64,000 nucleotides of DNA from the IMG/VR virus record IMGVR_UViG_2821013286_000001, positions 1 to 64,000 of that record. One strand, given 5' to 3'. The stretch comes from a virus (taxonomy: Duplodnaviria > Heunggongvirae > Uroviricota > Caudoviricetes). The position numbers and the translations under genes are program-made. This document shows positions 44,876 to 61,904 of the stretch, piece after piece. Position 1 is the first letter of the stretch. Every line of letters begins with the position of its first letter. A model generated the notes under the pieces. It was given only the letters and a program-made list of their open reading frames with translations. It was not told where the DNA came from and searched no databases.

Positions 44876-45250
44876 ATGAACAACGCCACTCAGATCGCAG
44901 ACAAGATTGCCAATGAACTCGTTCACGTCTCCGAAATGATGAATGCCGTTGCGACTGCCGATATCACCAATCTCACACGTCAACCTGTCTCCAAGCGCGA
45001 GACCTCGCCGGTCCGCAAGCTTCAGATCCTCAAAGAAATGCAGCAGGAAGTGTATGCGCGTAACAAAGCAGCCGTCGAGAAGGTTCTGACAAGCCGCACC
45101 TCGTTCGGTGATGACTTCCCTGACATGGTGCAAGACCGCTTCAAGGACATCGATCGCTCGCGTCGTGCAGAGCGTATGTTCCACGCAAAGCGCAAGCGTG
45201 AGCGTGCCGAGCTGATCGCCGCTGCAAAGCTCGCACGTGAGGAGCGATAA
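44876..45250 (+). CDS. hypothetical protein with basic C-terminus (cassette gene 3)
   Basis: Preceded by cassette copy 3; C-terminal FHAKRKRERAELIAAAKLAREER. Confidence 0.45.
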   Translation: MNNATQIADKIANELVHVSEMMNAVATADITNLTRQPVSKRETSPVRKLQILKEMQQEVYARNKAAVEKVLTSRTSFGDDFPDMVQDRFKDIDRSRRAERMFHAKRKRERAELIAAAKLAREER

Positions 45251-45419
45251 GAGAGTAGGCGCTTAGGCGCCTTTCCACCGCGGTAACATTGGACCTGGAA
45301 CTGGACGTGGCCGACGTACACAGAGCCGAACCTGGTGAGCTGTGCGTGAAACCCGCTAGAACCCTTCAATTCTTCATATCTAGGATTCTACAGCTCTAGG
45401 AATGGGATTGGCTAGAAAT

Positions 45420-45620
45420 ATAGGTCGCGGCTTAGGAAACCGGCATCCGTACGGGATCGACGGGCTGGCGCTTCGGCTGCGGGGCTGGCTGTCGTCTCAC
45501 AGGCGCGCGGGATCGACGGATAGGAACCAGGCCAGTGGCTTTTCCGTACAGGCCGTCCACCGGATGATCCTATGGATTTGCCCAGACAGCGAGAAGGACC
45601 GCTCATCACGAGCAGCCCTC
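45420..45620. other. GC-rich anomalous island with internal direct repeats (GGGATCGACGG x2, GGGCTGGC x2)
   Basis: Local GC clearly above the rest of the window; repeats at 45453/45509 and 45462/45482; no convincing ORF. Confidence 0.4.
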
Positions 45621-45625
45621 ACCCT

Positions 45626-45814
45626 TTAAACCAGACCCAACCGGTTCAGCTCCCGCAGACTTTCGAATTTCACACCTGTCTGATTACGGTATGGTCGGCC
45701 AAACATTTGGTCGATCCGCTGAAAGCTGCGTTTGTCAGATTCAATCAGCTTGTCCGTGAGTGACTTTTTCTTTTTGGACTGCTTGTACCAGAGCTTCGGA
45801 GAGACATCGCTCAT
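45626..45814 (-). CDS. hypothetical small basic protein
   Basis: 62-aa minus-strand ORF with GGAGAG SD; abuts a GC-rich island. Confidence 0.3.
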   Translation of the reverse strand: MSDVSPKLWYKQSKKKKSLTDKLIESDKRSFQRIDQMFGRPYRNQTGVKFESLRELNRLGLV

Positions 45815-45815
45815 A

Positions 45816-46013
45816 TCAGCTCTCCGACGTGCATGCGAAAGTGGTCGAGACGCGAATGCCGTTCTGATCGACCGGTACAGCGCTTTGACGCGCTGCGGAC
45901 TGTGCAGAGACGCAATCCTCGTAGGTCAGACCATAATCAACCACATAGTCATGCGTTGATACGTCTTGCGGCGTTTGCGTCATGACGATTGCGAGCAGAA
46001 TGAAGGTTTTCAT
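45816..46013 (-). CDS. small secreted protein
   Basis: N-terminal signal-like MKTFILLAIVMTQTPQ; minus strand, immediately upstream of 45626..45814. Confidence 0.3.
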   Translation of the reverse strand: MKTFILLAIVMTQTPQDVSTHDYVVDYGLTYEDCVSAQSAARQSAVPVDQNGIRVSTTFACTSES

Positions 46014-46378
46014 ATGTGTTACCTATTTATCTGTTTTTGTATGATTATAGATACCTAGATTTCTATATTCCTTCAAAGCGAACGTTGCGGCATTGCTAGA
46101 TGTCGAGAAGGGGAGAATTGCAGAAAACTAGGAAGGTAGAAGCCTAGGAAGCAAGAATTCCATGTCCGCAGCCTTGCAGGAATCTAGAAGGACAGGATTG
46201 CAGGCGACCAGGAGCCGAGCCACCGGATAATCCAGTAGGGGAGGCGGCACGAAATAGGATCGGCGGAAAATGGCGTTCGGCTCACAGGGGAATGGAGAGC
46301 ATTGCCCATAAGGAAAGGGGAGCGGGACGCGGCGCTGGACCGCTGATTATCGGACTGCTGATAGTGCGCTTGCAACAT

Positions 46379-46428
46379 ATGTTTCACAACAATGTTTCAC
46401 GCAAAGGTCAAAAAGCGTCAAATTTGAC
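46379..46428. repeat. direct repeat ATGTTTCAC x2 and 12-bp palindrome GTCAAATTTGAC
   Basis: atgtttcacaacaatgtttcac ... gcgtcaaatttgacc, 3' of the low-GC minus-strand gene. Confidence 0.45.
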
Positions 46429-46508
46429 CGCTGACACGCGTTTTGATTTTTGCGCAAAATGATACGCGCGCTATTGCTAACGCGCGTCTGTGACTCGATT
46501 TGAGCGAA

Positions 46509-46534
46509 CCGCGCTAGATATTTCACTAGCGCGG
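46509..46534. repeat. inverted repeat CCGCGCTAG-atatttca-CTAGCGCGG
   Basis: 9-bp arms 11 nt past the stop of gene 46545..47177(-); no U-tract. Confidence 0.4.
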
Positions 46535-46544
46535 TAGGTTACGA

Positions 46545-47177
46545 TTAGAGCTTTGCAAGTACCGCTTTCAGCATAGCGTTTTCGGTATTGATCTTATGCG
46601 TTTTGAAACGACCGCTAAACGTTGCACGCTCTTCAGCGCTCAAAAGGTTCAAAATGTTGAGACCTTCAAGAACAACGCTATTGCTCGACGATTGCGTGTC
46701 GCACGTTGCAGCGTCGCAATTCGTCTTACCACGCTTGATTGCATACATACCGCTTTCGCTCTTGTCAGTAATGTAGTCATGCGAGAACGACTTGCGACTA
46801 TCAAGTGAGGTGAAAATTTCACGCTCATTCACGATGAAAAGCTTGATAGTCTTCATTGCAGGTTCAAGAAATGCGTCAAGCGTTGCTTTACCGCTTTCAT
46901 CGATAAGAAACTTCAACATGCTTTGCAGCTTCTTGAGCGCATACATATTTTGCGTGAAAACACCGACATTGCATTGAACGCTATCAAGCAATTCTTCAAC
47001 CTGCTTTACACCGAGCAAAAGAGAAATGTTGTGAAGCATTTTCAGGTTCGGTGCGCTGATAGTACCTTTCTTCACTTCTGCGTCGATACGCGTTGCGAGC
47101 GCAAGCACATACTTGTTTTGAGCTGGTGCATTGTTCGTTGCGTTCTGCTTCTTTGCTACATTCTTAGTCATTGTCAT
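46545..47177 (-). CDS. hypothetical protein in a lower-GC segment
   Basis: 210-aa minus-strand ORF; GC visibly lower (about 44%) than surrounding genes; palindromic element at its 5' side (47186-47212). Confidence 0.5.
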   Translation of the reverse strand: MTMTKNVAKKQNATNNAPAQNKYVLALATRIDAEVKKGTISAPNLKMLHNISLLLGVKQVEELLDSVQCNVGVFTQNMYALKKLQSMLKFLIDESGKATLDAFLEPAMKTIKLFIVNEREIFTSLDSRKSFSHDYITDKSESGMYAIKRGKTNCDAATCDTQSSSNSVVLEGLNILNLLSAEERATFSGRFKTHKINTENAMLKAVLAKL

Positions 47178-47185
47178 TACCTCAT

Positions 47186-47212
47186 GTTGTGTGAACGTTT
47201 ATACATATTTGT
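47186..47212. promoter_or_regulatory. palindromic intergenic element (upstream of minus-strand gene)
   Basis: gtgtgAACGTTTATACAtatttg, 9 nt from the start of gene 46545..47177(-). Confidence 0.45.
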
Positions 47213-47467
47213 TTTTGTGCATCGTTGCGAGACTTGCTTGCTCGCTTTCGATGATTTGAATTTATCAGCTTTCACGTTTTATGCAACGCGGGATGCACCG
47301 AAGTCTTAGAGATATCAACAGGTTAGCTAGGGGATGCCTTCATTGTGCGCCACGATTTTTGAACCGTTCCTCCGGTCCGCTGCACCTTCTAAAATCCCCA
47401 CAATCCCTTATTCGCTATCCTCCGGTTCCTATACCCAACCGCCAACAGACAGGCGTTCGTTCCTCCG

Positions 47468-47497
47468 GTTTGTAAATAAACGTTGATTTATATTTCT
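47468..47497. promoter_or_regulatory. palindromic intergenic element
   Basis: tttgTAAATAAACGTTGATTTATAtttc before gene 47552. Confidence 0.5.
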
Positions 47498-47551
47498 GCG
47501 GTGCATATGTTCGGATCATTGATTTGCTAATCCTTTTCCGAAAGACCCTTT

Positions 47552-47782
47552 ATGTCTCAATCCGTTTCAAGCACGTCTGACGAACGCACCGTCAACAACA
47601 CCATGCGCCATGCCTACCGTGTTCTCTCCGATGAGGAGAAGGCGAACATGGGCAAGGTTAAGGATATGGGCCTCGAATTCCATAGTCTTGTCGATGGCCT
47701 TGGCGCCAGCCGCGAACTCTCCATCGCAAAAACCAAAATCGAAGAAGCCGTCATGTGGGCAGTCAAGCATCTGACTGCCTAA
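47552..47782 (+). CDS. hypothetical protein
   Basis: First gene of a + operon after the palindromic element at 47468. Confidence 0.45.
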   Translation: MSQSVSSTSDERTVNNTMRHAYRVLSDEEKANMGKVKDMGLEFHSLVDGLGASRELSIAKTKIEEAVMWAVKHLTA

Positions 47783-47806
47783 TTTCGTTTCAAGGACACT
47801 TTTCCA

Positions 47807-48082
47807 ATGAGCAAGATGAAACTTACCCCAACTCTGCTTTCAGGCATTCACCCCATTTATGGCGACGTGACCTGCGCCAGCTTTGACGGCACCGAAGAAA
47901 GCGCCATGTGCTGCGCATCGCTCGATCCGAACATCATCGCGTATGAGAGCGCCGAGCTTGGCCGCTGGAGCATTGAGGTGCCGACCATTGCAGGCGAATT
48001 CGCCTCTCTTGAGCCAGGTGATTACGTTGGCCTGACAGACAACGATCGCGTTGTGCCAATTCTGGCTGCCGAGGTCGAGTAA
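47807..48082 (+). CDS. hypothetical protein
   Basis: 91 aa. Confidence 0.4.
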   Translation: MSKMKLTPTLLSGIHPIYGDVTCASFDGTEESAMCCASLDPNIIAYESAELGRWSIEVPTIAGEFASLEPGDYVGLTDNDRVVPILAAEVE

Positions 48083-48372
48083 TGGCCAATCTCTACCGTA
48101 CCAAGGGTGAGAGGGTTAAGGCGCAGATCGTAGATTTCAACGCGATCAGCGCCATAATCGCTTTTCTGCAGGAGCGGAAAGTCGCCTTCGAACTTAAAGT
48201 CGTCAGCGAGAATGGTGAGCGTCCTCGCGTTTATGTGTCGTTCGTTTCTCCGCTACCAGAAGGCAGCGTTACGCTGCACGCCAATCCTGCCGACATGATA
48301 GTTCTCAAGGACGATCGGCTATCTGTCTGGAAGCAGGACGTGTTCTACAGGGAATACGAGGTAATCCGATGA
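48082..48372 (+). CDS. hypothetical protein
   Basis: TAATG overlap; 96 aa. Confidence 0.4.
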   Translation: MANLYRTKGERVKAQIVDFNAISAIIAFLQERKVAFELKVVSENGERPRVYVSFVSPLPEGSVTLHANPADMIVLKDDRLSVWKQDVFYREYEVIR

Positions 48373-48872
48373 GTGTGATTGCCTATCGTGACGGCGTGAT
48401 GTGCGCCGATACTCGTGCCTGGAGCGGCTCTCATCGACCAATCGGCGCTAAGCGCAAGATTCATGCATTGGAAGATGGAACGCTCGTTGGCGTCGTTTCC
48501 ACGATCGTCGGCTTTGGTGAGCGCCTGGCTGAGTGGGGGAGGGGAGGCTTCAAGGAAGAAGAGTTTCCAGATCCTGAATGCGAGATCGATTTCGCAATGC
48601 TCGTCGTGAAGCCGGATGGATCTGTTCTCTACTACGACAATTGCCGCTTTCCAACCGGACCACTCGAAGCCCCTTACTTCGCGTTTGGCAGTGGCGGTTC
48701 ATACGCCTTGGGAGCCATGCATGCCGGAGCGTCTGCCGAAGATGCCATTCATGCGGCCATCAAATTCGATACAGTCTGCGATTACCCCCTTCAGAAGATC
48801 GAGCGCGCTGTCGATGGACCGGTTCACTCTTCCGTCTATCACCACGTAAGGGGGTCCTATTATGTGCGGTGA
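48369..48872 (+). CDS. HslV/proteasome-beta-like Ntn-hydrolase peptidase
   Basis: Aligns along its length to HslV by eye: N-terminal S1 nucleophile position (MSVIAYRDG ~ TTIVSVRRNG), conserved Lys (GAKRKIHAL ~ GNVKKVRRL), VGFGERLAEW ~ AGFAGGTADAF, FGSGGSYALGAMHA ~ IGSGGPYAQAAARA. Confidence 0.5.
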   Translation: MSVIAYRDGVMCADTRAWSGSHRPIGAKRKIHALEDGTLVGVVSTIVGFGERLAEWGRGGFKEEEFPDPECEIDFAMLVVKPDGSVLYYDNCRFPTGPLEAPYFAFGSGGSYALGAMHAGASAEDAIHAAIKFDTVCDYPLQKIERAVDGPVHSSVYHHVRGSYYVR

Positions 48873-49056
48873 TATCGTGCACGTGTCGCTGAAGCGCCGG
48901 ATCGTCAAATACGCTGACGGCTCAACCGTTCGCATCGAGAGCCTTCTGGATATTTACGGCTTTGACGCTCGCACCAGTCGCGAAGTAGTGTCCTTCGTGA
49001 CTGAAGAGGGTGAAAGCTTCCACCTTTCTGAAGTGGAGGACTGCCTTGTTGGATGA
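48862..49056 (+). CDS. hypothetical small protein
   Basis: Overlaps end of HslV-like gene; 64 aa. Confidence 0.35.
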   Translation: MCGDIVHVSLKRRIVKYADGSTVRIESLLDIYGFDARTSREVVSFVTEEGESFHLSEVEDCLVG

Positions 49057-49069
49057 AGCGACGAAATTC

Positions 49070-49201
49070 ATGATCCGAATGATCATCCTGTTTCTCTTCG
49101 CAGCCTTCACGCTCTGGGTAATTCAGTATCAGCCGCCAACACGCGAAAAAGATCCCGTCGTCACCCAAAAAGAGCTTGAATATAAAGGTGAATCTGTATA
49201 A
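49070..49201 (+). CDS. small membrane protein
   Basis: MIRMIILFLFAAFTLWVIQY... single TM helix. Confidence 0.3.
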   Translation: MIRMIILFLFAAFTLWVIQYQPPTREKDPVVTQKELEYKGESV

Positions 49202-49219
49202 ACATTTATTTACATTTTC
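49192..49219. promoter_or_regulatory. palindromic intergenic element
   Basis: ctgTATAAACATTTATTTACAtttt at the end of the + operon. Confidence 0.45.
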
Positions 49220-49243
49220 AGCACGAAAGAATTTTCAGTCAAA

Positions 49244-49277
49244 AGGGCGGTTGTCATGTATGTGACCCGCCCTTTTT
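49244..49277. terminator. bidirectional terminator between convergent + operon and ParG-like gene
   Basis: AAAAGGGCGG...CCGCCCTTTTT (A-tract / hairpin / T-tract). Confidence 0.55.
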
Positions 49278-49282
49278 CGTTG

Positions 49283-49546
49283 TCAGCCCTTGGAATTTTC
49301 CTTGTACCAAAGGTCCACTGCCTCATAGATCACCTGGGTCAATGTCTTATCGACCGCGACAGCTGCGCCCTTCAGCTTACGATGCCACTCACGATCCACG
49401 ATCACATTGAGCTGTGAGGTGGTTTTGGCGCGCATGTTATCCGCTGGCTTGATGTTGGTATCAAGCGACGTGGCAAAATACGAGCGCTGTGCGGTGCGCG
49501 GTGCCTTCTTTGGCGTGTAGTCTTCTTCATCGTCTGCCATCTTCAC
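49283..49546 (-). CDS. ParG-like ribbon-helix-helix partition protein
   Basis: 87 aa, basic N-terminus, C-terminal RHH-like segment LNVIVDREWHRKLKGAAVAVDKTLTQVIYEAV; 4-nt overlap with the upstream ParA gene. Confidence 0.45.
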   Translation of the reverse strand: MKMADDEEDYTPKKAPRTAQRSYFATSLDTNIKPADNMRAKTTSQLNVIVDREWHRKLKGAAVAVDKTLTQVIYEAVDLWYKENSKG

Positions 49547-50184
49547 ACTCCTGTCCGCTCATCAACCAGTTTATAAATTTCTGTCAGAAGACGCTTGGCG
49601 TCACGCTTGAGCGTGGCAACCTTGACTTCCTGCACCGCTAGTCCTGTCGAGTTCGCAAACGCGTAGGTCGGTCGGAACTTGATCTCGGTCTTGGCGATCT
49701 TGAAACCGCCGCCGCTAATCAATTCGCGCGTCTCCTTGACGGCAATCGCGCTATCGACGGATTTGCTGATGACGAACAGGATATCATCTTTTTTGGCACC
49801 TTTATCGACCAGCTCCAGCGCGAACGCGAGCTGCGGCTCCACATCGTCTGCGATCGGCGCGGTCGGAATAAGGATCAGACGAGAGGCGAGGGCGATATCG
49901 AGCGAGGTATCGTGACTGTCTGGCTTGCCATCGGCCACAACCAGATCGACGCGCTCTTTGCTAAGCATGGACGGCTTGGCATAAGGCTTTGCATCAATCG
50001 CAGGCTCGTATTGGGCCGCCTTGCGTTTCTCATTCCATTTGAAGGAGGTTAGCTGTGTGGTGTTGAAGTCGGCAATCTTCACAGACCAATCATTGCTCGC
50101 ATAGCCAACCGCAATCATGCGCGACAATGTGGATTTTCCGACGCCGCCCTTCTGGCTGAGACAGGAAATAATGACCGGTTCCAT
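49543..50184 (-). CDS. parA: ParA/ParF-type partition ATPase (small type Ib)
   Basis: Deviant Walker A SQKGGVGKST; 213 aa; followed by a small RHH gene. Confidence 0.75.
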   Translation of the reverse strand: MEPVIISCLSQKGGVGKSTLSRMIAVGYASNDWSVKIADFNTTQLTSFKWNEKRKAAQYEPAIDAKPYAKPSMLSKERVDLVVADGKPDSHDTSLDIALASRLILIPTAPIADDVEPQLAFALELVDKGAKKDDILFVISKSVDSAIAVKETRELISGGGFKIAKTEIKFRPTYAFANSTGLAVQEVKVATLKRDAKRLLTEIYKLVDERTGV

Positions 50185-50223
50185 AGGAATCCTCGTGGCA
50201 AATCAATGTTTGATTTACCTTAT

Positions 50224-50259
50224 AATCTAGGTTCCTAACAACCTATTAAACCTAGAATT
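50224..50259. promoter_or_regulatory. imperfect inverted repeat AATCTAGGTT-N15-AACCTAGAATT in the parA upstream region
   Basis: Candidate operator or centromere-like site for the ParG-like protein; flanked by direct repeats TGATTTACCT at 50211 and 50341. Confidence 0.4.
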
Positions 50260-50274
50260 ATATAAATCTATGAA

Positions 50275-50300
50275 AATATAAATAAATGTTTACACAACCT
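50275..50300. promoter_or_regulatory. palindromic intergenic element (ParA upstream region)
   Basis: aatataaaTAAATGTTTACAcaacc, about 90 nt upstream of parA on the minus strand. Confidence 0.5.
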
Positions 50301-50322
50301 TAACTTTTAGGTATAGACAAAC

Positions 50323-50343
50323 TCATGACGTTCCACGTCATGA
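50323..50343. promoter_or_regulatory. inverted repeat TCATGACG-ttcca-CGTCATGA in the parA upstream region
   Basis: Arms of 8 bp, 5-nt spacer. Confidence 0.4.
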
Positions 50344-50379
50344 TTTACCTTGTGTCATTTTCTTGTTTTGTTCAGGAAA

Positions 50380-50414
50380 CCCCTGCTCTTTCATAGAGCA
50401 GGGGTCTTTTTTTT
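50380..50414. terminator. GC hairpin + T8 tract at the 3' end of the helicase gene region
   Basis: ACCCCTGCTCT-ttcat-AGAGCAGGGGT TTTTTTTT; the T-tract is on the + strand although the neighbouring gene is on the minus strand. Confidence 0.45.
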
Positions 50415-51990
50415 AGGCTGCTTTCTTGAACTCCTGAAAGATTTCCCAAGGCAGCTGTTCGACAATACCTTCTGCAAAGCCAGGCGTGCTGCGCACGATA
50501 TTCTCACGCTGGCGCGCATGATCGCGGAGCACGTCCGGAGCGTTGGACGAGTAGTCGATGAAAAATGCAAAGTTCGGCATGCCTTTCTTGGCGCGCAATC
50601 CACGACCGATCTGTTGCCGAAGTTGTACTTCCGCCTTCATACCGCCCAGGCGCTGCACAAGACCAATAGCTGGAACATCTACACCTACGTCCAGAATAGT
50701 CGTGCCGATAACGCCATCCAGTTCACCATCTTTCAACTTACGCAGCGTCTCGCGACGTTCACCCATCTTGTCTTCGCCCTGCAAAAACGCAAACTTCAGA
50801 CCGGCAGCCTTGTATTTCTCCAGAATGACCTGTCCGTGGCGCTTGCGAGCAATCAGTGCCAATACCGGCAGGGAGTAGCTTCTGGCTAACAGGGCATCTT
50901 CCAGTGCCTGTTCATGCATATTGGTGTTGTCGATATAGCCAAGCGTGTAGGCGCGCTCATATGGCGTCGATTTATAGAGCTTCACTGCTGCTGGAACGTC
51001 TCGGAACAGGAAGTATGGCTTTGCCAGAATGCCGCGATTAATTAACTCCTCTTCGGAAATGTCGATGAGAATGCGTCCGAACGCCGCCATGAGGCGCATA
51101 TTGTCTTCGGCAGACGAGCGCATGAACGGTGTGGCGGTCAGTGCGACGCGGATCTGAGCATTTTTGCAATACTGCAGGATCTTGAAGTAGCTTTCGCCGC
51201 CTGCTTCGTGCGCTTCCTCACCAATTACGACCTCGACCAGAGACAGAAACTTCTCAATGGCCATCTTCCGGCGCTTTTTGCGGTCATAATTATCCTGCGC
51301 GAGCTTATCGATCTCTTCATTGGGCATATTCGGATTCTTGCCCTTGCTGAGATTGATTGATTGAATGATGGCTCGACGTTCTGCGCGAAAATCCGGCTCT
51401 TCCAGTGATTGAACAAGAGTTTGAACCATGCCGAGGTTCACACCCTTGACGAAACTCATTTCTCCGTCGCCGATCTGACCGGTGCTCATGCCTATATCTT
51501 CGAGCTGGCTCTTCATCTGGTAGAGTAGGATGCCGCGCGTCGTGATAAAAAGCGTGATCCGCTTGAAGCGAGCGGCAATCAGTTTGGCGATCTTTGACTT
51601 ACCGCCGCCAGTCGCCACACGAATGATGCCGTTCTGATGCTTCTCGACCTGACGAAGCGCCTTCAACTGGTAATCGTATTTTGGATCATCATTGCCGAAC
51701 TCGTCTACAATCGGAGATTCCGGACCAAGCGGTAGCATTGGCGGTTTCTTGATGTGATGCACATTGAAGCCAGCACGCGTCAGTTCCTCACGCACGACCT
51801 CTGCGAAGCCTGCCGGAAAGGTATGATTGGAGACATTGTAGAAGCTCGACTTGCCATCCCAGGAAAGAGATCCGAAGCCAGTATTCGAGTGCTCATAGGA
51901 CAGAAGGTTATTTACGAGGTTCACAACCTGCTTGGTTGGGTCGATCAGCTTCGCGATGACGGCGTTCGACGCCAGTTTGACAGTAATCAT
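50413..51990 (-). CDS. SF2 DEAH-box helicase
   Basis: Motif I GGGKSKIA, motif II VIGEEAHEAGG (DEAH-type), motif III TATPFM, motif VI QQIGRGLR. Confidence 0.7.
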   Translation of the reverse strand: MITVKLASNAVIAKLIDPTKQVVNLVNNLLSYEHSNTGFGSLSWDGKSSFYNVSNHTFPAGFAEVVREELTRAGFNVHHIKKPPMLPLGPESPIVDEFGNDDPKYDYQLKALRQVEKHQNGIIRVATGGGKSKIAKLIAARFKRITLFITTRGILLYQMKSQLEDIGMSTGQIGDGEMSFVKGVNLGMVQTLVQSLEEPDFRAERRAIIQSINLSKGKNPNMPNEEIDKLAQDNYDRKKRRKMAIEKFLSLVEVVIGEEAHEAGGESYFKILQYCKNAQIRVALTATPFMRSSAEDNMRLMAAFGRILIDISEEELINRGILAKPYFLFRDVPAAVKLYKSTPYERAYTLGYIDNTNMHEQALEDALLARSYSLPVLALIARKRHGQVILEKYKAAGLKFAFLQGEDKMGERRETLRKLKDGELDGVIGTTILDVGVDVPAIGLVQRLGGMKAEVQLRQQIGRGLRAKKGMPNFAFFIDYSSNAPDVLRDHARQRENIVRSTPGFAEGIVEQLPWEIFQEFKKAA

Positions 51991-52026
51991 GGTTTCCTAC
52001 GGCTTGCAAAAGCGGTTGTTTGGCCT

Positions 52027-52054
52027 ATTATGTGGATAAATATTTATACAAATC
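52027..52054. promoter_or_regulatory. palindromic intergenic element (divergent helicase / ParB-like region)
   Basis: atgtggaTAAATATTTATACAaatc. Confidence 0.5.
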
Positions 52055-52072
52055 TATTTTGAGTACGTCCAC

Positions 52073-52831
52073 ATGATAAACCCCGAATATCTAACGGTTT
52101 CGGCATCGACACTTCGCAAGAACCCCTGGAACACGAACATCGTGTCTGCGGACAATGAAGCGAAGATACGAGAGTCGATCACGCGAAACGGTCTTTTCAA
52201 ACCGATCATAGTCAGAGAGGTAGCGGGTATTGCCGGCTACGAGATCATCGGCGGTGAGCACCGTTGGGAACAGGCGATTGAGCTTGGACATACAGACGTT
52301 CCGATCGTCAATCTCGGCCAGATCGATGACCGTCATGCCAAAGAGATCGGCATCATCGACAATGCGCGGTACGGCGCTGACGATACGGTTGGCCTCGGCG
52401 ATATTCTGAAGGAACTTGGCAATCTCGATGAGATCCAGTCATTCCTTCCCTACGGCGACACTGATCTGAAGCTGCTTTTTACGGCAGGCGAGATCGATCT
52501 CGATGCACTCGGCGATGAGGCTACCGATGCTGAGACAGCCGAAGCTGAAGGCGTTGAGGAAGAAGTTGCCGCGAAGCCGGTCAAAACCCACACGGTTGTG
52601 CGCTTCAAAATCTCCCTTTCAGATGCAGAACGCGTAACCGCACTTGTTGCCAAGACACAGAAAACGCACGGCTACACGACGGAAGATGAGCTGACCAATG
52701 CCGGTGACGCTCTAATCCACATTCTCTCGCAGTTTTTCCCGCAAGCCGCATCCAAGAGCGAAAGCGACGACGATTTCGGCTCGGAAATGAACATTCTCGA
52801 TGAACTTGATTACGCCCTGGAGGCAAAATGA
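52073..52831 (+). CDS. ParB-like nuclease-domain protein 1
   Basis: ParB N-terminal domain pattern KPIIVREVAG...YEIIGGEHRWEQAIELG...VPIVNL; acidic C-terminus. Confidence 0.6.
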   Translation: MINPEYLTVSASTLRKNPWNTNIVSADNEAKIRESITRNGLFKPIIVREVAGIAGYEIIGGEHRWEQAIELGHTDVPIVNLGQIDDRHAKEIGIIDNARYGADDTVGLGDILKELGNLDEIQSFLPYGDTDLKLLFTAGEIDLDALGDEATDAETAEAEGVEEEVAAKPVKTHTVVRFKISLSDAERVTALVAKTQKTHGYTTEDELTNAGDALIHILSQFFPQAASKSESDDDFGSEMNILDELDYALEAK

Positions 52832-53496
52832 TTCATACCGTAGAACTTTGGGACGTTGAAAAGCTCGTTCCTTACGAACTCAACGCCAAAAAGCATCCTG
52901 ATTTCCAGATCGAGAAGCTTGCACGCTCGATCAAGAAGTTCGGCTTTTCCAGCCCGATTGTCGTCTGGGGCAATGGCGAGATCATCGCCGGCCACGGTCG
53001 CCGCCTGGCTTCAATCAAACTTGGACTGACGAAGGTTCCGGTTGTCGTGCGCGCGGATCTCTCGAAGGCCGAAGCTGACGCGATGCGGCTTGCTGACAAC
53101 CGCGTGGCCTCGACTGAATATGATCAGGAAATGGTGCAGGAAGAGCTGCGCCGTCTCAATGAGCTGATCATGACCGAAGACATCGATCTGGACCTGTCAC
53201 TGACTGGCTATGACGAAAAGGAACTCAATTTCACGCTGGCCGATATGGGCGAAATGAGCTTCGACCACTTCGTTGATGACGTTGGCGCTGCTCTCGAAGA
53301 GCAGAAACAGGAAACGGCCAAGGTTATTGCCGACACCGACGACACGGCAGCGCCTGTGGTGGATGCCCTCGGCTTCAAACGCCTTCCCATTGCACAGTCG
53401 CGCCAGCTGCGCGAGTTCATGCGGCAGATTGAAACCCAGACCGGCCTGAAAGGTGCTGACGCTCTCATGCAGTTCCTCACGGCTTCTTTGGCCTAA
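52828..53496 (+). CDS. ParB-like nuclease-domain protein 2
   Basis: SPIVVWGNGEIIAGHGRRLASIKLGL.KVPVVV; ATGA overlap with paralogue 1. Confidence 0.6.
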   Translation: MIHTVELWDVEKLVPYELNAKKHPDFQIEKLARSIKKFGFSSPIVVWGNGEIIAGHGRRLASIKLGLTKVPVVVRADLSKAEADAMRLADNRVASTEYDQEMVQEELRRLNELIMTEDIDLDLSLTGYDEKELNFTLADMGEMSFDHFVDDVGAALEEQKQETAKVIADTDDTAAPVVDALGFKRLPIAQSRQLREFMRQIETQTGLKGADALMQFLTASLA

Positions 53497-53530
53497 TTTT
53501 CTAGATTTATATAAAAATAGGATTGTTGCC

Positions 53531-53953
53531 ATGAATAGCGACGAGAACACGGAGAGCAACGTAATCGACATGCGTAAATTTCGGGAAACCGGAAAGCGCG
53601 TGTCGCTCGACGCTATTCAGGAAACCAAGACCGAGAAAAAGGAAGTCGCGCTTGATGAAGTGAAAGGCCGGATAGCCGAGTATCTCGCCAACCTGACTAA
53701 GCTGGCAGAGCAGGGGAGGCTGGAAAGTATCGTCATTGTTGCCAGCTCCACTGACGGTCCCTTTCACATGAACACGATCATCGATCCACGATGCTCGAAC
53801 ATGACGCAGGCTTACACCATGGCTGGCGCGCTCGATTCAGCACGTCTGCAAATGCTCGATATGAGCGCATGGGCACCTGAGCTTCTCGAAGATGGCAGCA
53901 CATTTGAGCAGGACGATTTTAGCACCGAATTTATTGAGGAAGATGATGAGTGA
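53531..53953 (+). CDS. hypothetical protein
   Basis: ATG 53531 within track ORF 53453..53953. Confidence 0.4.
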   Translation: MNSDENTESNVIDMRKFRETGKRVSLDAIQETKTEKKEVALDEVKGRIAEYLANLTKLAEQGRLESIVIVASSTDGPFHMNTIIDPRCSNMTQAYTMAGALDSARLQMLDMSAWAPELLEDGSTFEQDDFSTEFIEEDDE

Positions 53954-54611
53954 GTACGTAATTGATCGTGCTTTCACGACATCCGTGGACCGCACACCGC
54001 GCGTTCTGGAAGTCGCTGAAGCATTTGGCCTGGGTCTGTCGGACAAGAAATTCGTGATTTACGACAATCTGGCGCTAGAAGTTTCGCCAGGCGATGTCGT
54101 TTATATCACTGGACAGTCAGGCTCCGGCAAATCACTCCTGCTGCGCGACCTGTCACAGAAAATGCGCGAAAGCGGTCTGAAGGTAGCGGATCTCAACGAG
54201 GTCGAGCTTCCGGATGTTCCGGTCATCGAATCTCTGGGAGAAAGCACTCTCGAAGCGACGGAATTGCTGGCGAAGGCCGGCATTTCGGACGCCTACATTT
54301 ATATTCGCAAACCAGGCGAGCTGTCGGACGGCCAAAGATACCGCCTGAAGCTGGCAAAAGTCATGGAACAGGACGCGGATGTGTGGATTGCCGACGAATT
54401 CGGCGCCATCCTGGACCGCGTGACCGCCAAGGCTGTTGCATTCAACATGGCAAAAGTTGCGCGCCGCCTCGGCAAGATCTTCATGGTCGCCACGACGCAC
54501 ACGGATCTTGTGTCCGAGCTGGCGCCGAACCTTTTCATCGACAAGCGTTTCCGTGAGAAAGTGAATATCGAGCGCACGGACATTGTGGAGGCTCTCAATG
54601 TCGCTGCTTGA
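53950..54611 (+). CDS. P-loop ATPase
   Basis: Walker A GQSGSGKS, Walker B VWIADEFGAILD; ATGA overlap. Confidence 0.55.
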
Positions 54612-54855
54612 CAAAATGGCTCTGTTTTTTGCCGAAGCAAACTATTTTCTGATGATTGCAACAAAGGGCTACCAGCTTGAAGGCATTTTTATCGTCGCTG
54701 CGATCCTGATTGTCGCGCTGGCCTTGATTGTCGGCCTTGTCTGGCTTGTTTTTGACGTGTTCTGGTCGCTGTTCAAGCATATCAGCGCGAAGCTGTTCAA
54801 AAACAGGTCAGAAACCGACACAGAAGCTCAGGGGAGCGATCCGAATGCATCCTGA
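54598..54855 (+). CDS. small membrane protein
   Basis: Two TM helices (IFIVAAILIVALALIVGLVWLVF). Confidence 0.35.
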   Translation: MSLLDKMALFFAEANYFLMIATKGYQLEGIFIVAAILIVALALIVGLVWLVFDVFWSLFKHISAKLFKNRSETDTEAQGSDPNAS

Positions 54856-55717
54856 GTACGAGACGATCTTAAAATACGAACGCTCGCCAGTGCAGCGTTT
54901 TGAGCTTTTGGATGAAATGATGGTGGAGCCTGGCTCCGTCGAAGATTGGGATCTTCTGCACGACCTTCACTACAAGGCCGAGAAGCTGCCTATTGGTCCG
55001 CATTTCTTCAAGCTCACGCTGCGCGGCGATACAATTGGCGTCCTCGTAACTGGCGTTGCAAAGGGCATGGTGCGTGAGCGCAACATGGTCTTTCCGAACC
55101 TGAAGCCAGGCGCAGGCGAGACCAAGCTGACCAACACGAACCGTTACCACTACATCAACCGGAATTTCCGCGTTGTGTCGCGCTTTGTCGTGGACACGAT
55201 GTACCGCGGTATCGGCTGCGGCTACCGGATGATGAATCTGGTCTCGCGTATGGAAGGCATGCAGTTCATCGAAATCCAGTCGTCTATGTCGAAGTTCAAT
55301 TACTTCGGCCAGAAGGCAGGCTTCCATTTCGTCAAGCCAATGAACGCCAACAATCACGAGAAGGTCATGCGCTTCTTCCGCAAGAACTTCAAATCCAACC
55401 CGCAGGATTTCGAGGCTCTTGTGCAGGAGGCTGAAGCTATGTCCGCCGAGCACCAGGAAGAGCTTCTTGTCGTTCTGAAGGAATTCTACGGCGGCAGCTC
55501 TGCATTGGAGAACACGACGCGCGGCGGCGTGCAGGCCGAAGGTCGTATTGCGCGCATGACGATCCGCGATTGCATCAAGGGCATTCAGCAGATTGGTCTG
55601 GCTTCACCGATGTACGGCATCTGGCGCAATCCGGATTTCAAGCGCGACATTCCGAAGATCCTGCCGCTGTCGGCATTCGACAATCAAAAGCCCACCGAAA
55701 AACTGGTGCTGCCATGA
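54845..55717 (+). CDS. GNAT-like acetyltransferase-fold protein
   Basis: RFVVDTMYRGIGCGYRMMN resembles GNAT motif A (V...YRG.GIG..L). Confidence 0.4.
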   Translation: MHPEYETILKYERSPVQRFELLDEMMVEPGSVEDWDLLHDLHYKAEKLPIGPHFFKLTLRGDTIGVLVTGVAKGMVRERNMVFPNLKPGAGETKLTNTNRYHYINRNFRVVSRFVVDTMYRGIGCGYRMMNLVSRMEGMQFIEIQSSMSKFNYFGQKAGFHFVKPMNANNHEKVMRFFRKNFKSNPQDFEALVQEAEAMSAEHQEELLVVLKEFYGGSSALENTTRGGVQAEGRIARMTIRDCIKGIQQIGLASPMYGIWRNPDFKRDIPKILPLSAFDNQKPTEKLVLP

Positions 55718-55968
55718 GAATTCCGGTCCAGCGATCCAAGAAGCAGAAAGAGATCATGAGCTACATCCTGAAAGGGATGGATGCCGGCACACCGGAGACA
55801 TACGAGTCTCTGGCCGCCAAGCTGTCATATGGTCCAAGCTACGATGCGCTCCGCGTCTCAATCGCTTTCCTGAAGAAGCACAGCATGGTTGAGGTCCGCA
55901 GGGTAGGTCACGTTGCGGAACTGCTTCCGACCTCCGAGAGCTACTACTATTTCCGCAAGCTGACGTGA
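55717..55968 (+). CDS. small putative DNA-binding protein
   Basis: 83 aa, basic N-terminus, helix-rich; immediately upstream of the terminase small-subunit candidate. Confidence 0.35.
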   Translation, partial: RIPVQRSKKQKEIMSYILKGMDAGTPETYESLAAKLSYGPSYDALRVSIAFLKKHSMVEVRRVGHVAELLPTSESYYYFRKLT

Positions 55969-56060
55969 AAGCGTCCCGCAGAGTTTCAGATTTTAGGATC
56001 AGGACGCAGCGTTTCAAAAATCCGCGCGATGTAAATTAAGATAAATATATAAGAGTTAGT

Positions 56061-56118
56061 ATTATATTATATATATACATCGCACGGCATTGAAACACGG
56101 CTAAAATGTGTCGAGACG
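56061..56118 (+). repeat. 55-bp element copy B
   Basis: attatattatatatatacatcgcacggcattgaaacacggctaaaatgtgtcgagacg; about 80 nt upstream of the terminase small-subunit gene; about 80% identical to copy A. Confidence 0.55.
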
Positions 56119-56163
56119 TAACCATAGGTTGCGGAATTGACATCTGTTCCTGAAATCATCATA

Positions 56164-56187
56164 CTGTATAAATATTTATACAATTTT
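56164..56187. promoter_or_regulatory. palindromic intergenic element (contains TATAAATA)
   Basis: ctgTATAAATATTTATACAatttt, 13 nt before the terminase small-subunit ATG. Confidence 0.5.
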
Positions 56188-56199
56188 TGAGCCGTTTTT

Positions 56200-56850
56200 A
56201 TGAGTGATTTTGAGGAAGCTGCGGATAGCGCAGATGATGCTTCCAAGCCGATTAGAAAGCTGACGGACGCGGATTTCGCAGAGGCCGTCAATCTGTATGA
56301 GTTGGGCAAGGCTGGCATCACCGAGCTTGCGGCCAGGTACGGCTGTTCGCGTCAGAATCTCTCCGATCGCTTCAAACGTGCCGGCGTCAAGAAATCCTCC
56401 CGCGTTCATGAGCTGACTGATGCCGCTGCGGCAGCAAGCCGAAAGGAAGCTGAAGCAGCGGCAGCCGCAGCGCAGCGTTTCGCCAACCGCCGCGCCGACA
56501 TGATCGAAGAAGTTCGAATGTCTGGGCTGAATGCGCTCAAGCAAGCGCGAATGCTCGCCCAGAAATCAGTTGTCGATGCGGTGAAGTCAGGAAGACCGGT
56601 TGCAGTCGCGGAAGACGACCTGAAGTCTCTACAGCGCTTTAACAAGCTATTGGTCGATAACATCGAAAGCTCTTTGCGCATTCTCAAAGCCGACGACCAC
56701 GTGGACGACACTGATCTGCCAAATCTCGTGATCGCAAATCTAACGGATGAAGAAATTCTGGCTCATCACAAATCCACCGGCGCTTTGCCGGAGGACGCAA
56801 CGCTTGATGACCTCAATCTTCAGGATTCGATCGGGCTTGAGGACGAATAA
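56200..56850 (+). CDS. terminase small subunit (putative)
   Basis: N-terminal HTH (ELAARYGCSRQNLSDRFKRAG), central Ala-rich coiled region, acidic C-terminus; directly upstream of the large terminase. Confidence 0.5.
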   Translation: MSDFEEAADSADDASKPIRKLTDADFAEAVNLYELGKAGITELAARYGCSRQNLSDRFKRAGVKKSSRVHELTDAAAAASRKEAEAAAAAAQRFANRRADMIEEVRMSGLNALKQARMLAQKSVVDAVKSGRPVAVAEDDLKSLQRFNKLLVDNIESSLRILKADDHVDDTDLPNLVIANLTDEEILAHHKSTGALPEDATLDDLNLQDSIGLEDE

Positions 56851-56853
56851 TCC

Positions 56854-58125
56854 GTGGCCGATCTTAATCAGTACGTCAAACTTCATCGCGGTCAGGCTCT
56901 CGTTATGCGGGACCGTCGGCGTTTTCGCGTTGTTGTAGCTGGCCGCCGTTGGGGAAAGACACGCCTTTCCCAGACCTGTTTGATTACGGCAGCTGGTAAT
57001 CCAAAAAGTCTCGTCTGGTACGTTGCGCCGACCTATCAGATGGCGCGAGACATTATGTGGGATGAGCTGAAAGCAGCCGTTCCGCAAGCTTGGATGGCTC
57101 GGCCGCCAAACGAAACACGCATGATCATCTATCTGCTGAACGGCGCACGCATTCAGCTGAAGGGTGCGGATAAACCGGACACGCTGCGCGGCGTCGGCCT
57201 GACATTTGTTGTGATCGATGAGGCGCAGGATATTCGTGAGACGACCTGGCAGGAAGTTCTACTGCCGACGCTCGCCTCTACCAATGGCCGTGCACTGATC
57301 ATCGGCACGCCAAAAGCCTATAACTGGCTCTATGACAAATACGTTCTCGGTCAGCGCGGCGACACCTACAAGGACGAAAAAGGAAACATCGTCGCCAATG
57401 AATGGCGCTCGTGGCAGTTTCCGACCATCACGTCGCCATTTATTCCGCGTGCAGAAATCGAAGCGCGTCGCGCCGATATGGACCCTCGCTCGTTCCGCCA
57501 GGAGTTCGAGGCATCGTTCGAAACCATGTCTGGCCGCGTTTACTACGCCTTCGACCGCAACTTGCATGTTGATGACCTGGCAATCGACAAGACATTGCCG
57601 CTCTATATCGGCATGGACTTCAATATCGATCCGATGTCGGCTGTTGTCTTGCAGGAGCAGAAGAACGGCGAGATATGGGCGATTGATGAGATCGTACTTT
57701 ACGGCTCGAATGCCGAAGAGACAGGCGACGAAATCATGTCGCGCTATTTCAAATACGCCAACAGCATGTCGCTCTATCCAGATCCGGCCGGCAACAACCG
57801 CAACCACGATCGCGGCGAGTCCTCTATCGACATTCTGCGCGAGCAGGGCTTCAAGCATATCTATTTCAAGCGCAAGCACCCTGCCGTTCAGGACCGCGTG
57901 GCCTCTGTGAATCGCCTGCTGATGTCGGCTGACGGTCAGGTTCGGCTGCGCGTGGACCGGAAGTGCAAAAAGCTGATCGATAGTCTTGAACAGACCATCT
58001 ACAAGCCAGGCACCAAGGAAGTTGACAAGTCGCTAGGCGTCGAGCACGTGACCGATGCTTTGGGCTACTTTACCGATTATCGTCATCCTGTTCGCAAGGC
58101 TCGTATTCTGGGTGTCGAACTTTGA
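56854..58125 (+). CDS. terminase large subunit
   Basis: Walker A VVAGRRWGKT, Walker B FVVIDEAQD, C-terminal RNase-H-like nuclease region (IGMDFNIDPMSAVVLQE); GTG start. Confidence 0.8.
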   Translation: MADLNQYVKLHRGQALVMRDRRRFRVVVAGRRWGKTRLSQTCLITAAGNPKSLVWYVAPTYQMARDIMWDELKAAVPQAWMARPPNETRMIIYLLNGARIQLKGADKPDTLRGVGLTFVVIDEAQDIRETTWQEVLLPTLASTNGRALIIGTPKAYNWLYDKYVLGQRGDTYKDEKGNIVANEWRSWQFPTITSPFIPRAEIEARRADMDPRSFRQEFEASFETMSGRVYYAFDRNLHVDDLAIDKTLPLYIGMDFNIDPMSAVVLQEQKNGEIWAIDEIVLYGSNAEETGDEIMSRYFKYANSMSLYPDPAGNNRNHDRGESSIDILREQGFKHIYFKRKHPAVQDRVASVNRLLMSADGQVRLRVDRKCKKLIDSLEQTIYKPGTKEVDKSLGVEHVTDALGYFTDYRHPVRKARILGVEL

Positions 58126-58128
58126 CCT

Positions 58129-58160
58129 TGTATATGGATAAACGTTTATATACACTATAG
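58129..58160. promoter_or_regulatory. palindromic intergenic element
   Basis: tatggaTAAACGTTTATATACActatagg between terminase large subunit and portal. Confidence 0.5.
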
Positions 58161-58192
58161 GCATATTTTATTCGTTCATTTGAGAGATTGCC

Positions 58193-59806: not shown

Positions 59807-59905
59807 TTGGCGAGAGACTGTCCAATTGCTGCATCAATTTTCAACAGAAGGCCAAGAGACCGGCCACTCTAGCGATCCGAGAGACTGGATCAGGAGATTT
59901 TTAAA

Positions 59906-60802
59906 ATGCATATTTTGATGAATAAATACCTCGCACGCATGCCGCTTTGGGAGCCGGAAGGTAAAAGCGGCGGTGGCGGTGATGGCAAGGACGGCCAGGA
60001 TGGCAATGAACCTGCCAAGACCACAGACGAAGACAAGGGCGGTGATCGCAAGTCCGGCGACGATGACGAGGGAAAGGGTGACGGCGAAGGCGGCGACGAT
60101 GAGGTTGTTGAACTTCGCAAGAAGCTGAAGGAGCGCGACGACGAGAATGCGCGCCTGCTCCGCGAAAGCATGAAGCGCAAGGACGAACTGAAGAAGTTCG
60201 CTGGCATCGATCCTGCGCGCTACAATGAGCTTGTCAGTCAGGAAGACCAGGCGCGTCAGGCCAAGGAAGACGCTGACCGCACCGCTGCCGAAAAGGCTGG
60301 CGATTTTGAGCGCGTCAAGCAGATGATGGCTGACAGCCACAAGAAGGAAACCGACAAGCTTCAGGAGCAGATCGACGCGCTGACGGCACAGATCGGCGAT
60401 AAGGACAAGACGATTGAAGAGCTGTCGCTCGGCAATTCATTCTCATCCAGCTCGTTCATTGGTGAAAACCTGATCCTGTCGCCTGCCAAGGCTCGCAAGC
60501 TCTACGGCTCGCATTTCGAAATCGAAGACGGCAAGGTCATCGGTTACGACAAGCCTGCTGGCGCAAAGGACCGCACAAAGCTCGTCAATGGCGCAGGAGT
60601 TGCGCTCGGCTTCGAAGCTGCAATCGCTGCAATCGTGGACGCTGACAGCGATAAGAACACGATCATGAAGTCGAAGATGAAGCCTGGCTCTGGATCTCGC
60701 ACCAATTCAGGCGGCGACAAAGAGCCTGCCAAGAAGGGTGACGGTCTCACCGGAATTGCTCGAATGCGTGCTTCTGCCAGTAATTTCGTAGGCGGCAAGT
60801 AA
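59906..60802 (+). CDS. scaffolding protein (putative)
   Basis: Gly/Asp/Lys-rich low-complexity N-terminus, long charged coiled coil, positioned between portal and major capsid; terminator downstream. Confidence 0.45.
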   Translation: MHILMNKYLARMPLWEPEGKSGGGGDGKDGQDGNEPAKTTDEDKGGDRKSGDDDEGKGDGEGGDDEVVELRKKLKERDDENARLLRESMKRKDELKKFAGIDPARYNELVSQEDQARQAKEDADRTAAEKAGDFERVKQMMADSHKKETDKLQEQIDALTAQIGDKDKTIEELSLGNSFSSSSFIGENLILSPAKARKLYGSHFEIEDGKVIGYDKPAGAKDRTKLVNGAGVALGFEAAIAAIVDADSDKNTIMKSKMKPGSGSRTNSGGDKEPAKKGDGLTGIARMRASASNFVGGK

Positions 60803-60825
60803 CAATCCAGATCACTGAAAAGATA

Positions 60826-60858
60826 AGGCGCGGTATAGCTCACCGCGCCTTTCGTTTT
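60826..60858 (+). terminator. rho-independent terminator after the scaffold gene
   Basis: AAGGCGCGGT-atagctc-ACCGCGCCTT TCGTTTTG. Confidence 0.6.
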
Positions 60859-61900: not shown

Positions 61901-61904
61901 TCTT

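Follow-up and report, generated by a model that had tools for sequence, protein, structure and literature searches.

What might a tailed phage do with a proteasome-like peptidase that comes without an unfoldase? This question is raised by a locus at positions 47552–49201 of a 64,000-nucleotide (nt) stretch of DNA (positions 1 to 64,000 of the IMG/VR virus record IMGVR_UViG_2821013286_000001, Caudoviricetes), which we call the window. The locus consists of six tightly packed open reading frames (ORFs; g1–g6) on the plus strand, several of which overlap, and minus-strand genes lie on both flanks (Table 1). An initial annotation of the sequence had described the g4 product as an HslV/proteasome-beta-like peptidase without its HslU partner, encoded in an operon of small unknown proteins. 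We propose that g4 is a minimal proteasome-beta/HslV-like N-terminal nucleophile (Ntn) hydrolase in an operon that is most simply read as an accessory host-takeover or counter-defence unit, and we give this explanation as a whole a probability of about 60%.

We first consider the fold of the g4 protein. It matches phrog_1040 ('peptidase HslV family') over residues 1–145 (E 2.6e-30), and the last ~22 residues (146–167) form a lineage-specific tail. As a single sequence it scores 12 bits against the Pfam model Proteasome (PF00227), below the cut-off of 22.4, it has no hit in NCBIfam, HslV included, at E<=1, and its only match among PDB sequences is BPH, in the GSG-loop region (E 0.21). We aligned 21 homologues of g4 (alignment A1) and used this alignment for a profile and for an AlphaFold2 model. 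Among PDB sequences, the A1 profile finds proteasome beta5 (1e-6), BPH (3e-6) and HslV (1g3i, 1.6e-4). The model has a mean pLDDT of 88.8 and yields 486 Foldseek hits in the PDB at E<=1e-3, the top matches being proteasome beta5-type subunits and Trypanosoma brucei HslV (E ~1e-7, TM 0.6–0.7). The proposed proteasome-beta/HslV-like fold is thus confirmed, and the profile searches against Ntn and proteasome families pointed to no different fold. The claim that g4 aligns to HslV along its whole length holds for the core (residues 1–145); the tail lies outside it, and the direct resemblance to HslV is weak.

The model also reveals a reduction of the fold. DSSP assigns a single helix (49–58) between the N-terminal strands and strand 75–80, and at the place of helix H2 in beta subunits the A1–beta5 alignment has a gap of ~22 residues; H2 is absent from g4. 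In HslUV structures, H1 and H2 form part of the surface that faces HslU.

The active site can be traced residue by residue. The alignment places Ser2, Asp14, Lys30, Gly107-Ser108-Gly109 and Asp134 of g4 at proteasome catalytic positions: A1 pairs the Asp of the ADSR motif with beta5 Asp17, the invariant Lys with Lys33 and the GSG loop with Gly128-Ser129-Gly130, and Asp134 is the equivalent of Asp166. The protein starts with M-S-V, and there is no earlier start codon between this one and the preceding stop, so no upstream extension is possible. Both the Ser nucleophile directly after Met1 and the conserved Lys and GSG loop had been noted from the sequence, and these observations stand. Methionine aminopeptidase cleaves off an initiator Met that is followed by a small residue, Ser and Thr included; the host enzyme would remove Met1 of g4 and leave Ser2 as a free N-terminal nucleophile.

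Conservation across the family follows the same pattern. Among 170 members, Lys30 and Gly107 are invariant (170/170), Asp14 is nearly so (169/170), and Ser108 (134/170) and Asp134 (123/170) are frequent, the last within a motif D-x-x-S/T/C-G-G that resembles proteasome Asp166-x-x-Ser169. Of the relatives of g4, 161/169 begin with MT or MS. The family core spans residues 1–145 and the median length is 149 amino acids (aa); C-terminal tails of at least 20 residues beyond the core occur in 34/170 members, the longest having 124 residues. Judged from the retained residues, g4 is likely to be a catalytically active hydrolase.

These features correspond to the PPH family described by Fuchs et al. 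(2021, Bioinformatics 37:4694, PMC8665760). According to that paper, PPH proteins have ~140 residues, lack helix H2 and a propeptide, have no assigned function, radiate from the BPH cluster of proteasome homologues, and are found in tailed phages and in bacterial prophage regions, mainly of Proteobacteria, with most bacterial PPH genes sitting in prophages. Every diagnostic feature that we examined is present in g4: the proteasome-beta fold, the size (a compact core of ~145 aa that lacks the C-terminal S12/H5 elements), the absence of H2 and of a propeptide, the catalytic residues (Thr/Ser after Met1, the catalytic Asp and Lys) and the encoding by a tailed phage, again without an ATPase partner. 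We therefore assign g4 to the PPH family, which we consider equivalent to phrog_1040; the assignment is based on the described features and on phrog_1040. That g4 is a PPH-family protein with an Ntn fold is close to certain. It differs from the family as described in its minority Ser nucleophile, its 22-residue C-terminal tail and its operonic linkage to an Acb2-type sponge (see below), which the passages searched in the paper do not mention (PMC8665760).

The family is large. A HMMER scan of 1.84 billion cluster representatives retrieved 11,103 proteins at E<=1e-3, of which 7,595 also pass E<=1e-10, so that the family comprises thousands of clusters at 50% identity; nearly all of the top 150 matches align from their own residue 1. 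In GenBank, 204 phage records contain a homologue (Escherichia 62, Caulobacter 39, Rhizobium 20, Aeromonas 13, Vibrio 11, Pseudomonas 11, and others), where these proteins are usually annotated as 'peptidase HslV family' or 'Ntn hydrolase'. The g4 protein itself is identical to NIH77404.1 / WP_166943532.1 of Ochrobactrum sp. P20RRXII, labelled 'hypothetical protein', and its structural neighbours in BFVD are all uncharacterised. Searching the literature for work on what phage HslV-like, PPH or Ntn proteins do, we found no such study, only the bioinformatic description from 2021.

Comparison with better-known Ntn proteins helps to separate g4 from its relatives. With HslV (ClpQ) it shares the Ntn fold, the N-terminal nucleophile after Met1, the equivalents of Lys33 and the GSG loop and a similar size class; however, it fails the thresholds of the HslV and Proteasome models, lacks H2, is ~30 residues shorter, has Ser in place of Thr and a shorter first hairpin with the Asp at position 14 instead of 17, and has no adjacent hslU gene. 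An HslV orthologue that has lost its partner can thus be ruled out, given the failed curated models, the missing H2, the Ser for Thr and the absence of hslU nearby. BPH (PDB 5ovs, 5ovt, 5ovu), the best single-sequence match of g4 in the PDB and close to it in the profile search, is likewise a stand-alone proteasome homologue without a known ATPase partner (PMC8665760), but with ~200 aa it is larger, has kept H2 and assembles into heptameric double rings. The 20S proteasome subunit beta5 gives the best profile and structure matches, with AADSR, Lys33 and GSG aligned; yet beta5 has a propeptide, helices H1–H4 and C-terminal elements, and it acts in a four-ring alpha/beta particle.

We next turn to the ATPase. 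No Clp/HslU-type AAA+ gene was found in the window, which covers 64 kb of an element of ~108 kb, by a PHROG search with the 40 largest ORFs and a Walker-A scan of ORFs of at least 120 aa. What these scans found instead were SbcCD, ribonucleotide reductase, thymidylate synthase, dUTPase, a kinase, RIIA/RIIB, RtcB, ParA, ParB, two ABC ATPases, a helicase and the terminase. The statement that no AAA+ unfoldase lies nearby is thus correct for the window. The same holds elsewhere: no AAA+ unfoldase adjoins PPH in the phages RHEph10, phiCbK, anhysbys, RS51pmB or phiM5, and the 25 PHROG or Pfam families found most often in a set of 126 dereplicated immediate PPH neighbours include no unfoldase family. 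As the PPH radiation normally has no ATPase partner, the 'missing HslU' is not an anomaly in a family without an adjacent ATPase (PMC8665760), and the suggested use of host HslU is unlikely for a protein that also lacks H2. Without a propeptide, H2 and an ATPase partner, g4 should act independently of ATP and not as an HslUV-type machine; that it works independently of HslU and ClpX is very probable. PPH would then be a peptidase acting on peptides, unfolded proteins or one specific substrate.

The second part of our reading concerns the operon. The data of a public sequencing run yielded a relative (L001) whose g4 is 81% identical and which contains the same six genes in identical order. Substitutions between the window and L001 are concentrated at third codon positions across the operon ORFs, which indicates that all six are real coding genes, although g6 is the least clear of them in this test. 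The description of the locus as an operon of small unknown proteins is thus right about its layout, six plus-strand genes between minus-strand genes, but not about g1, which we identify as a member of the Acb2/Tad1 family of sponges.

This identification is based on several comparisons. The g1 protein scores 66.5 bits against Pfam PF24729, a two-helix hairpin domain (cut-off 27, E 2.4e-18), and a profile search retrieved 2,791 relatives, many of them named Acb2/Tad1 domain-containing or cyclic nucleotide-binding protein. It has weak PDB sequence matches to Acb2 p26, 'Acb2 homolog 43' and T4 Vs.4. In the alignment to 8h2j, Tyr22 and Lys37 of g1 pair with Tyr11 and Lys26 of p26, which we take to be residues of the cyclic-dinucleotide pocket of Acb2, and both are invariant in seven lineage homologues. 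In the PF24729 score and these two pocket-aligned residues, g1 thus resembles Acb2 (PaMx33 p26, T4 Vs.4) and Tad1, but the direct similarity of this 76-aa protein to the solved Acb2 proteins is weak (E ~0.1).

The pairing of an Acb2-like gene with PPH recurs in the lineage to which the window phage belongs, the RHEph10-like elements of Rhizobiales (~110 kb, with ParA, ParG and ParB). The window phage is distantly related to the Rhizobium phage RHEph10 group (SbcC-like proteins 44–47% identical, TerL 65%). In RHEph10, RHph_X66, RHph_N1_10 and RHph_Y2_11, the gene immediately upstream of PPH overlaps it by 4 nt and is positive for PF24729 (41–63 bits), and the protein of RHph_N1_10 matches T4 Vs.4 at 4.4e-5. 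In two further relatives, L006 and L019, Acb2-like ORFs lie 47 and ~390 nt upstream of PPH. In total, 8/8 lineage genomes examined have an Acb2-like gene within 0.6 kb upstream of PPH and in the same orientation, with zero, one or two genes between them. BLASTP and jackhmmer from g1 alone missed the RHEph10 homologue, which was detected with Pfam and a lineage profile. Homologues of Acb2 from the same lineage are also present on contigs of 115–119 kb in Rhizobium, Ensifer, Sinorhizobium and Pararhizobium assemblies.

In RHEph10, L006, L019 and the window, PPH (42–47% identity) occupies one fixed position, convergent with ParG-ParA, beyond which follow a helicase and then two ParB-like genes. 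The genes g2, g3, g5, g6 and the 210-aa gene on the g1 side are confined to the window and L001. PPH is therefore a backbone gene of the lineage, and the small genes on its flanks vary. Between the terminase and the ParB-like genes there are two ABC-type ATPase genes, an arrangement that is conserved in RHEph10.

With a sponge as its first gene, the operon is most simply read as an accessory unit for host takeover or counter-defence in which PPH is the enzyme; that it serves counter-defence or host takeover is a tentative proposal. More speculative, and rather unlikely, is a direct cooperation in which Acb2 binds the cyclic-oligonucleotide signal and PPH destroys or processes a protein of the immune pathway. 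The candidate targets would be a CD-NTase, an effector or a Cap2-type ubiquitin-like conjugate. What speaks for this cooperation is the gene linkage, which is seen in one lineage.

Several observations weigh against the proposed enzyme and its role in such a unit. The family position 2 is Thr in 146/170 members and Ser in 23/170, so that g4 has the minority nucleophile, and proteasome beta5 becomes less active when its Thr1 is changed to Ser. At position 137, g4 carries Cys where Ser or Thr is commoner. We found no PPH member with a demonstrated activity or substrate in the literature. Regarding the operon, a profile of 127 Acb2 sequences detected no Acb2 within 6 kb of PPH in ~80 loci outside the lineage. 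The linkage is thus seen in 5/85 viral, metagenomic and reference loci and in three further Rhizobium phages, all of one lineage, and may therefore reflect shared ancestry and not shared function. Lastly, the commonest named PHROGs among the 126 immediate neighbours are head, connector and packaging families, not known anti-defence genes.

This last observation leads to the alternative that survives best, in which PPH is a virion-morphogenesis protease that is packaged into the procapsid or acts on it, with the shell as its chamber, and degrades the scaffold or trims head proteins; in the window phage, its gene would have been displaced by 8 kb from the head module. The initial annotation had regarded g4 as no obvious prohead protease. 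This is correct in that g4 lies outside the head module of the window, 8 kb upstream of TerL, but homologues elsewhere do lie inside head or packaging modules. As there are many of these, the idea needed testing and not dismissal; it is disfavoured for other reasons.

To describe the placement of PPH, we surveyed 80 loci on viral contigs together with reference loci (85 or 86 loci counted). A gene for TerL, portal, scaffold or major capsid protein (MCP) lies within 2.5 kb of PPH in 39/86 loci, almost always on the same strand, and PPH is often start/stop-coupled to the TerL or scaffold gene. At least three different head-module arrangements contain PPH: scaffold (phrog_206), MCP (phrog_247), HNH, unknown, PPH and adaptor Ad1; a T7-like order of portal, scaffold, PPH and MCP, for which we found no isolate among GenBank phages; and TerL, PPH and portal, as in Sinorhizobium phage phiM5. 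Loci with PPH inside the head or packaging module include L007, L037, L043, L088 (phiM5) and ~35 others, many of them from smaller phages, and at least 20 related loci have PPH between, or nearly between, portal and capsid genes. Furthermore, no canonical prohead protease is recognisable in the head module of the window (56200–61900), and none is annotated in the RHEph10 stretches 1–50000 and 96556–115042 or in phiM5. The canonical prohead proteases (HK97 gp4, T4 gp21, ClpP-like) would share with many PPH relatives the location between terminase or portal and capsid genes, but they are unrelated to PPH in fold and catalytic type.

However, the distribution of PPH does not follow that of the capsid. 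An MCP of the phiM5 type is found in 315 phage records (105 Pseudomonas, 94 Escherichia), mostly without PPH, compared to 204 records with PPH, of which 11 are Pseudomonas; the Escherichia PPH matches listed are Phapecoctavirus genomes of ~150 kb. As most phages of the same capsid type have no PPH, it is accessory, and we reject the reading as an obligatory prohead protease. In two loci PPH adjoins a canonical head maturation protease (phrog_595), and an HNH endonuclease shares the PPH slot in the scaffold-MCP-PPH arrangement, which is typical of an accessory insertion site. In addition, the phiM5 record flags the scaffold protein, not PPH, as detected in the particle proteome, and in large phages (phiCbK, Phapecoctavirus, the RHEph10-like lineage) a long distance separates PPH from the head genes. 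We thus regard PPH as accessory, a gene that is often carried in late or accessory slots, and consider a role in virion morphogenesis unlikely.

Next in order is the possibility that PPH is a specific, non-degradative Ntn enzyme, for example a connectase-like ligase or transpeptidase, or an amidase whose substrate is one protein or a non-protein amide. The proteasome-like family includes connectase, a monomeric and highly specific protein ligase (PMC8665760), so a protein with this fold need not be a bulk protease. Both H2 and C-terminal elements that are used for ring contacts have been lost in PPH (PMC8665760), and its widely varying tails suggest lineage-specific partners. Yet the full proteolytic set is retained (equivalents of Thr/Ser1, Asp17, Lys33, Ser129 and Asp166), and no conserved partner or substrate gene accompanies PPH: in an all-against-all clustering of the surveyed neighbourhoods we found no universal neighbour, the largest neighbour family being present in 13/85 loci, which reflects synteny within one phage group. 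With nothing positive beyond the precedent, we consider this explanation distinctly unlikely.

PPH could also serve a plasmid-like or lysogenic lifestyle, through the turnover of partition, replication or regulatory proteins, or as a prophage-expressed 'moron' that benefits the host; it would then be unrelated to lytic takeover or defence. In the RHEph10-like lineage, PPH always adjoins the convergent ParG-ParA cassette. Identical or related elements are found as contigs of ~108–119 kb in Ochrobactrum, Rhizobium, Ensifer, Sinorhizobium and Pararhizobium, which is consistent with episomal carriage; together with ParA/ParG and the two ParB-like genes, these contigs suggest a phage-plasmid state in which RHEph10-like phages can persist. 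The PPH gene of the Proteus phage RS51pmB has the lysis genes on one side and the terminase on the other, which is a classic moron slot, and the prophage location of most bacterial PPH genes reported by Fuchs et al. (PMC8665760) points in the same direction. This explanation is nevertheless improbable, as there is no link between PPH and Par genes outside the RHEph10-like lineage and as PPH is also present in many phages with a strictly lytic life cycle (phiCbK-like phages, Phapecoctavirus and jumbo phages).

The weakest alternative, an HslV surrogate whose rings dock on host HslU or ClpX and redirect ATP-dependent proteolysis, has the distant homology to 1g3i, the structural match to T. brucei HslV and the label 'peptidase HslV family' of many databases in its favour, but is highly improbable given the failed NCBIfam and Pfam searches, an A1 profile at least as close to beta5 and BPH (PMC8665760), the missing H2 and the absence of any ATPase gene co-occurring with PPH in the contexts examined.

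Compared to these alternatives, we prefer the reading of g4 as a minimal Ntn hydrolase in an accessory host-takeover or counter-defence unit. The remaining genes of this unit and its flanking elements are listed in Table 1.

Table 1. Features of the operon, its flanks and other parts of the window discussed in the text (positions in the window)
Feature	Position	Strand	Description
T5-type deoxyribonucleoside 5'-monophosphatase	15397–16008		
RIIA/RIIB	22751–26654		
RNA ligase-like protein and RtcB-type tRNA-splicing ligase	26718–27326 and 33721–35121		
210-aa gene	46545–47177	minus	unknown; flank on the g1 side
Upstream region	47178–47551		374 nt; 94% identical to L001
18-bp motif copy	47188..47205		TGTGTGAACGTTTATACA; identical in L001; the divergent 210-aa gene starts 11 nt away, with the motif on its 5' side
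Direct repeats	47368, 47418, 47461 (span 47368..47469)	plus	three direct copies of TCCTCCGGT, upstream of the operon
18-bp motif copy	47473..47490		TAAATAAACGTTGATTTA; candidate promoter or operator element, 62 nt 5' of the g1 start
g1	47552–47782	plus	76 aa; Acb2/Tad1-family cyclic-oligonucleotide sponge (anti-CBASS type)
Hairpin at the g1 3' end	47756..47781	plus	-16.1 kcal/mol, z -3.7; followed by a weak U-tract
g2	47807–48082	plus	91 aa; lineage-specific, no family found
g3	48082–48372	plus	96 aa; ORFan; stop shares 4 nt (ATGA) with the g4 start
g4	48369–48872	plus	167 aa; PPH-family proteasome-beta-like Ntn hydrolase
g5	48862–49056	plus	64 aa; no family found; 11-nt overlap with the g4 end
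g6	49070–49201	plus	~43 aa from ATG 49070; ORF open from GTG 49010
18-bp motif copy	49195..49212		one mismatch to the consensus; overlaps the g6 stop codon
Bidirectional intrinsic terminator	49241–49276	both	between the convergent g6 and ParG-like genes
ParG-like gene	49283–49546	minus	flank on the g6 side, convergent with g6
ParA-like gene	49543–50184	minus	flank on the g6 side
Helicase gene	50413–51990		525 aa; listed with the minus-strand flank beyond the ParA-like gene
ABC-type ATPase genes	53892–54611, 54728–55717		between the ParB-like genes and the terminase
terS-like gene	56200		head module
TerL	56854		head module
Portal	58193		head module; phrog_145
Scaffold	59906		head module; phrog_206
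MCP	61001		head module; 299 aa; phrog_212
18-bp motif, start positions	1227, 9020, 16044, 20949, 26660, 30915, 30993, 37688, 38417, 47188, 47473, 49195, 50279, 58135, 60879, 61910		

Among the other genes of the operon, g2, g3 and g5 have no match in Pfam, PHROGs, NCBIfam or PDB sequences, and no relatives were detected beyond L001, where g2 is 71% identical with a coding-type substitution pattern and g5 is 86% identical. For g3, only two clusters were found among 5.8 billion proteins. By BLASTP, g3 shows no similarity to the gene upstream of PPH in RHEph10, nor g5 to the gene downstream of it. The N-terminal segment of g6, MIRMIILFLFAAFTLWVIQY, is hydrophobic and is kept in L001, where the counterpart is called as 40 aa; from its sequence, g6 probably encodes a single-pass membrane peptide. 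Megablast searches of the operon against phages and of window positions 45000–64000 against plasmids gave no match. As for g4, the g1 and g3 proteins are identical to entries of Ochrobactrum sp. P20RRXII, all on a contig of 107,890 bp.

The palindromic elements around the operon had been taken as its bounds. We found instead that they are copies of an 18-bp near-palindrome, TAAATAAA[C/T]GTTTATACA, which is present at ~14 sites of the window (18 strand matches with at most three mismatches, compared to 0.02 expected). These sites are mostly intergenic and usually lie 40–130 nt 5' of gene starts, including those of g1, the portal gene and the MCP gene. As the motif recurs throughout the window, the palindromes are not cassette boundaries, and a mobile cassette bounded by them is ruled out. 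Probably the motif is a promoter or operator specific to this phage, or is bound by a dimeric regulator.

Upstream of the operon, the three direct copies of TCCTCCGGT (0.31 expected) are the only ones in the window and all are conserved in L001; they are probably regulator-binding sites. The upstream region as a whole may have a regulatory function, form an iteron-like array or encode an unannotated RNA. In a scan for sigma-70 promoters, none upstream of g1 was convincing, and neither Rfam at gathering thresholds nor a tRNA scan gave a match in the whole window. The hairpin at the 3' end of g1 may act as a partial terminator or mRNA stabiliser that favours g1 over g2–g6, by which the sponge would be made in excess. 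On the other side of the operon, the proposed bidirectional terminator is real, as a stable hairpin is followed by U-runs on both strands (plus strand -20.6 kcal/mol, z -5.2; minus strand -19.7 kcal/mol, z -6.4).

The window also includes an RNA ligase-like protein and an RtcB-type ligase, which we take to resemble a tRNA-repair kit against host anticodon nucleases, and it combines a T5-type deoxyribonucleoside 5'-monophosphatase and RIIA/RIIB with a siphovirus-like genome and a Rhizobiales host. In phiCbK (L003), genes for a nicotinamide phosphoribosyltransferase and a cytidyltransferase-like protein (positions 1–1806) lie a few genes, ~1.7 kb, upstream of the PPH gene. Phage NAD+ salvage genes have been reported to counter NAD-depleting defences; with this function, the phiCbK genes would be a further hint of an anti-defence neighbourhood of PPH.

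Taken together, the PPH family was known as a large family with an intact proteasome-type active site and no assigned function, and what is new here is the context of this member. This context offers two handles on PPH: the pairing with an Acb2-type sponge, often translationally coupled, in RHEph10-like phages of Rhizobiales, and the placement in head and packaging modules elsewhere. If Acb2 and PPH indeed act together, this would be the first viral proteasome homologue with a role in immune evasion. Either handle could reveal what a minimal viral proteasome homologue does.

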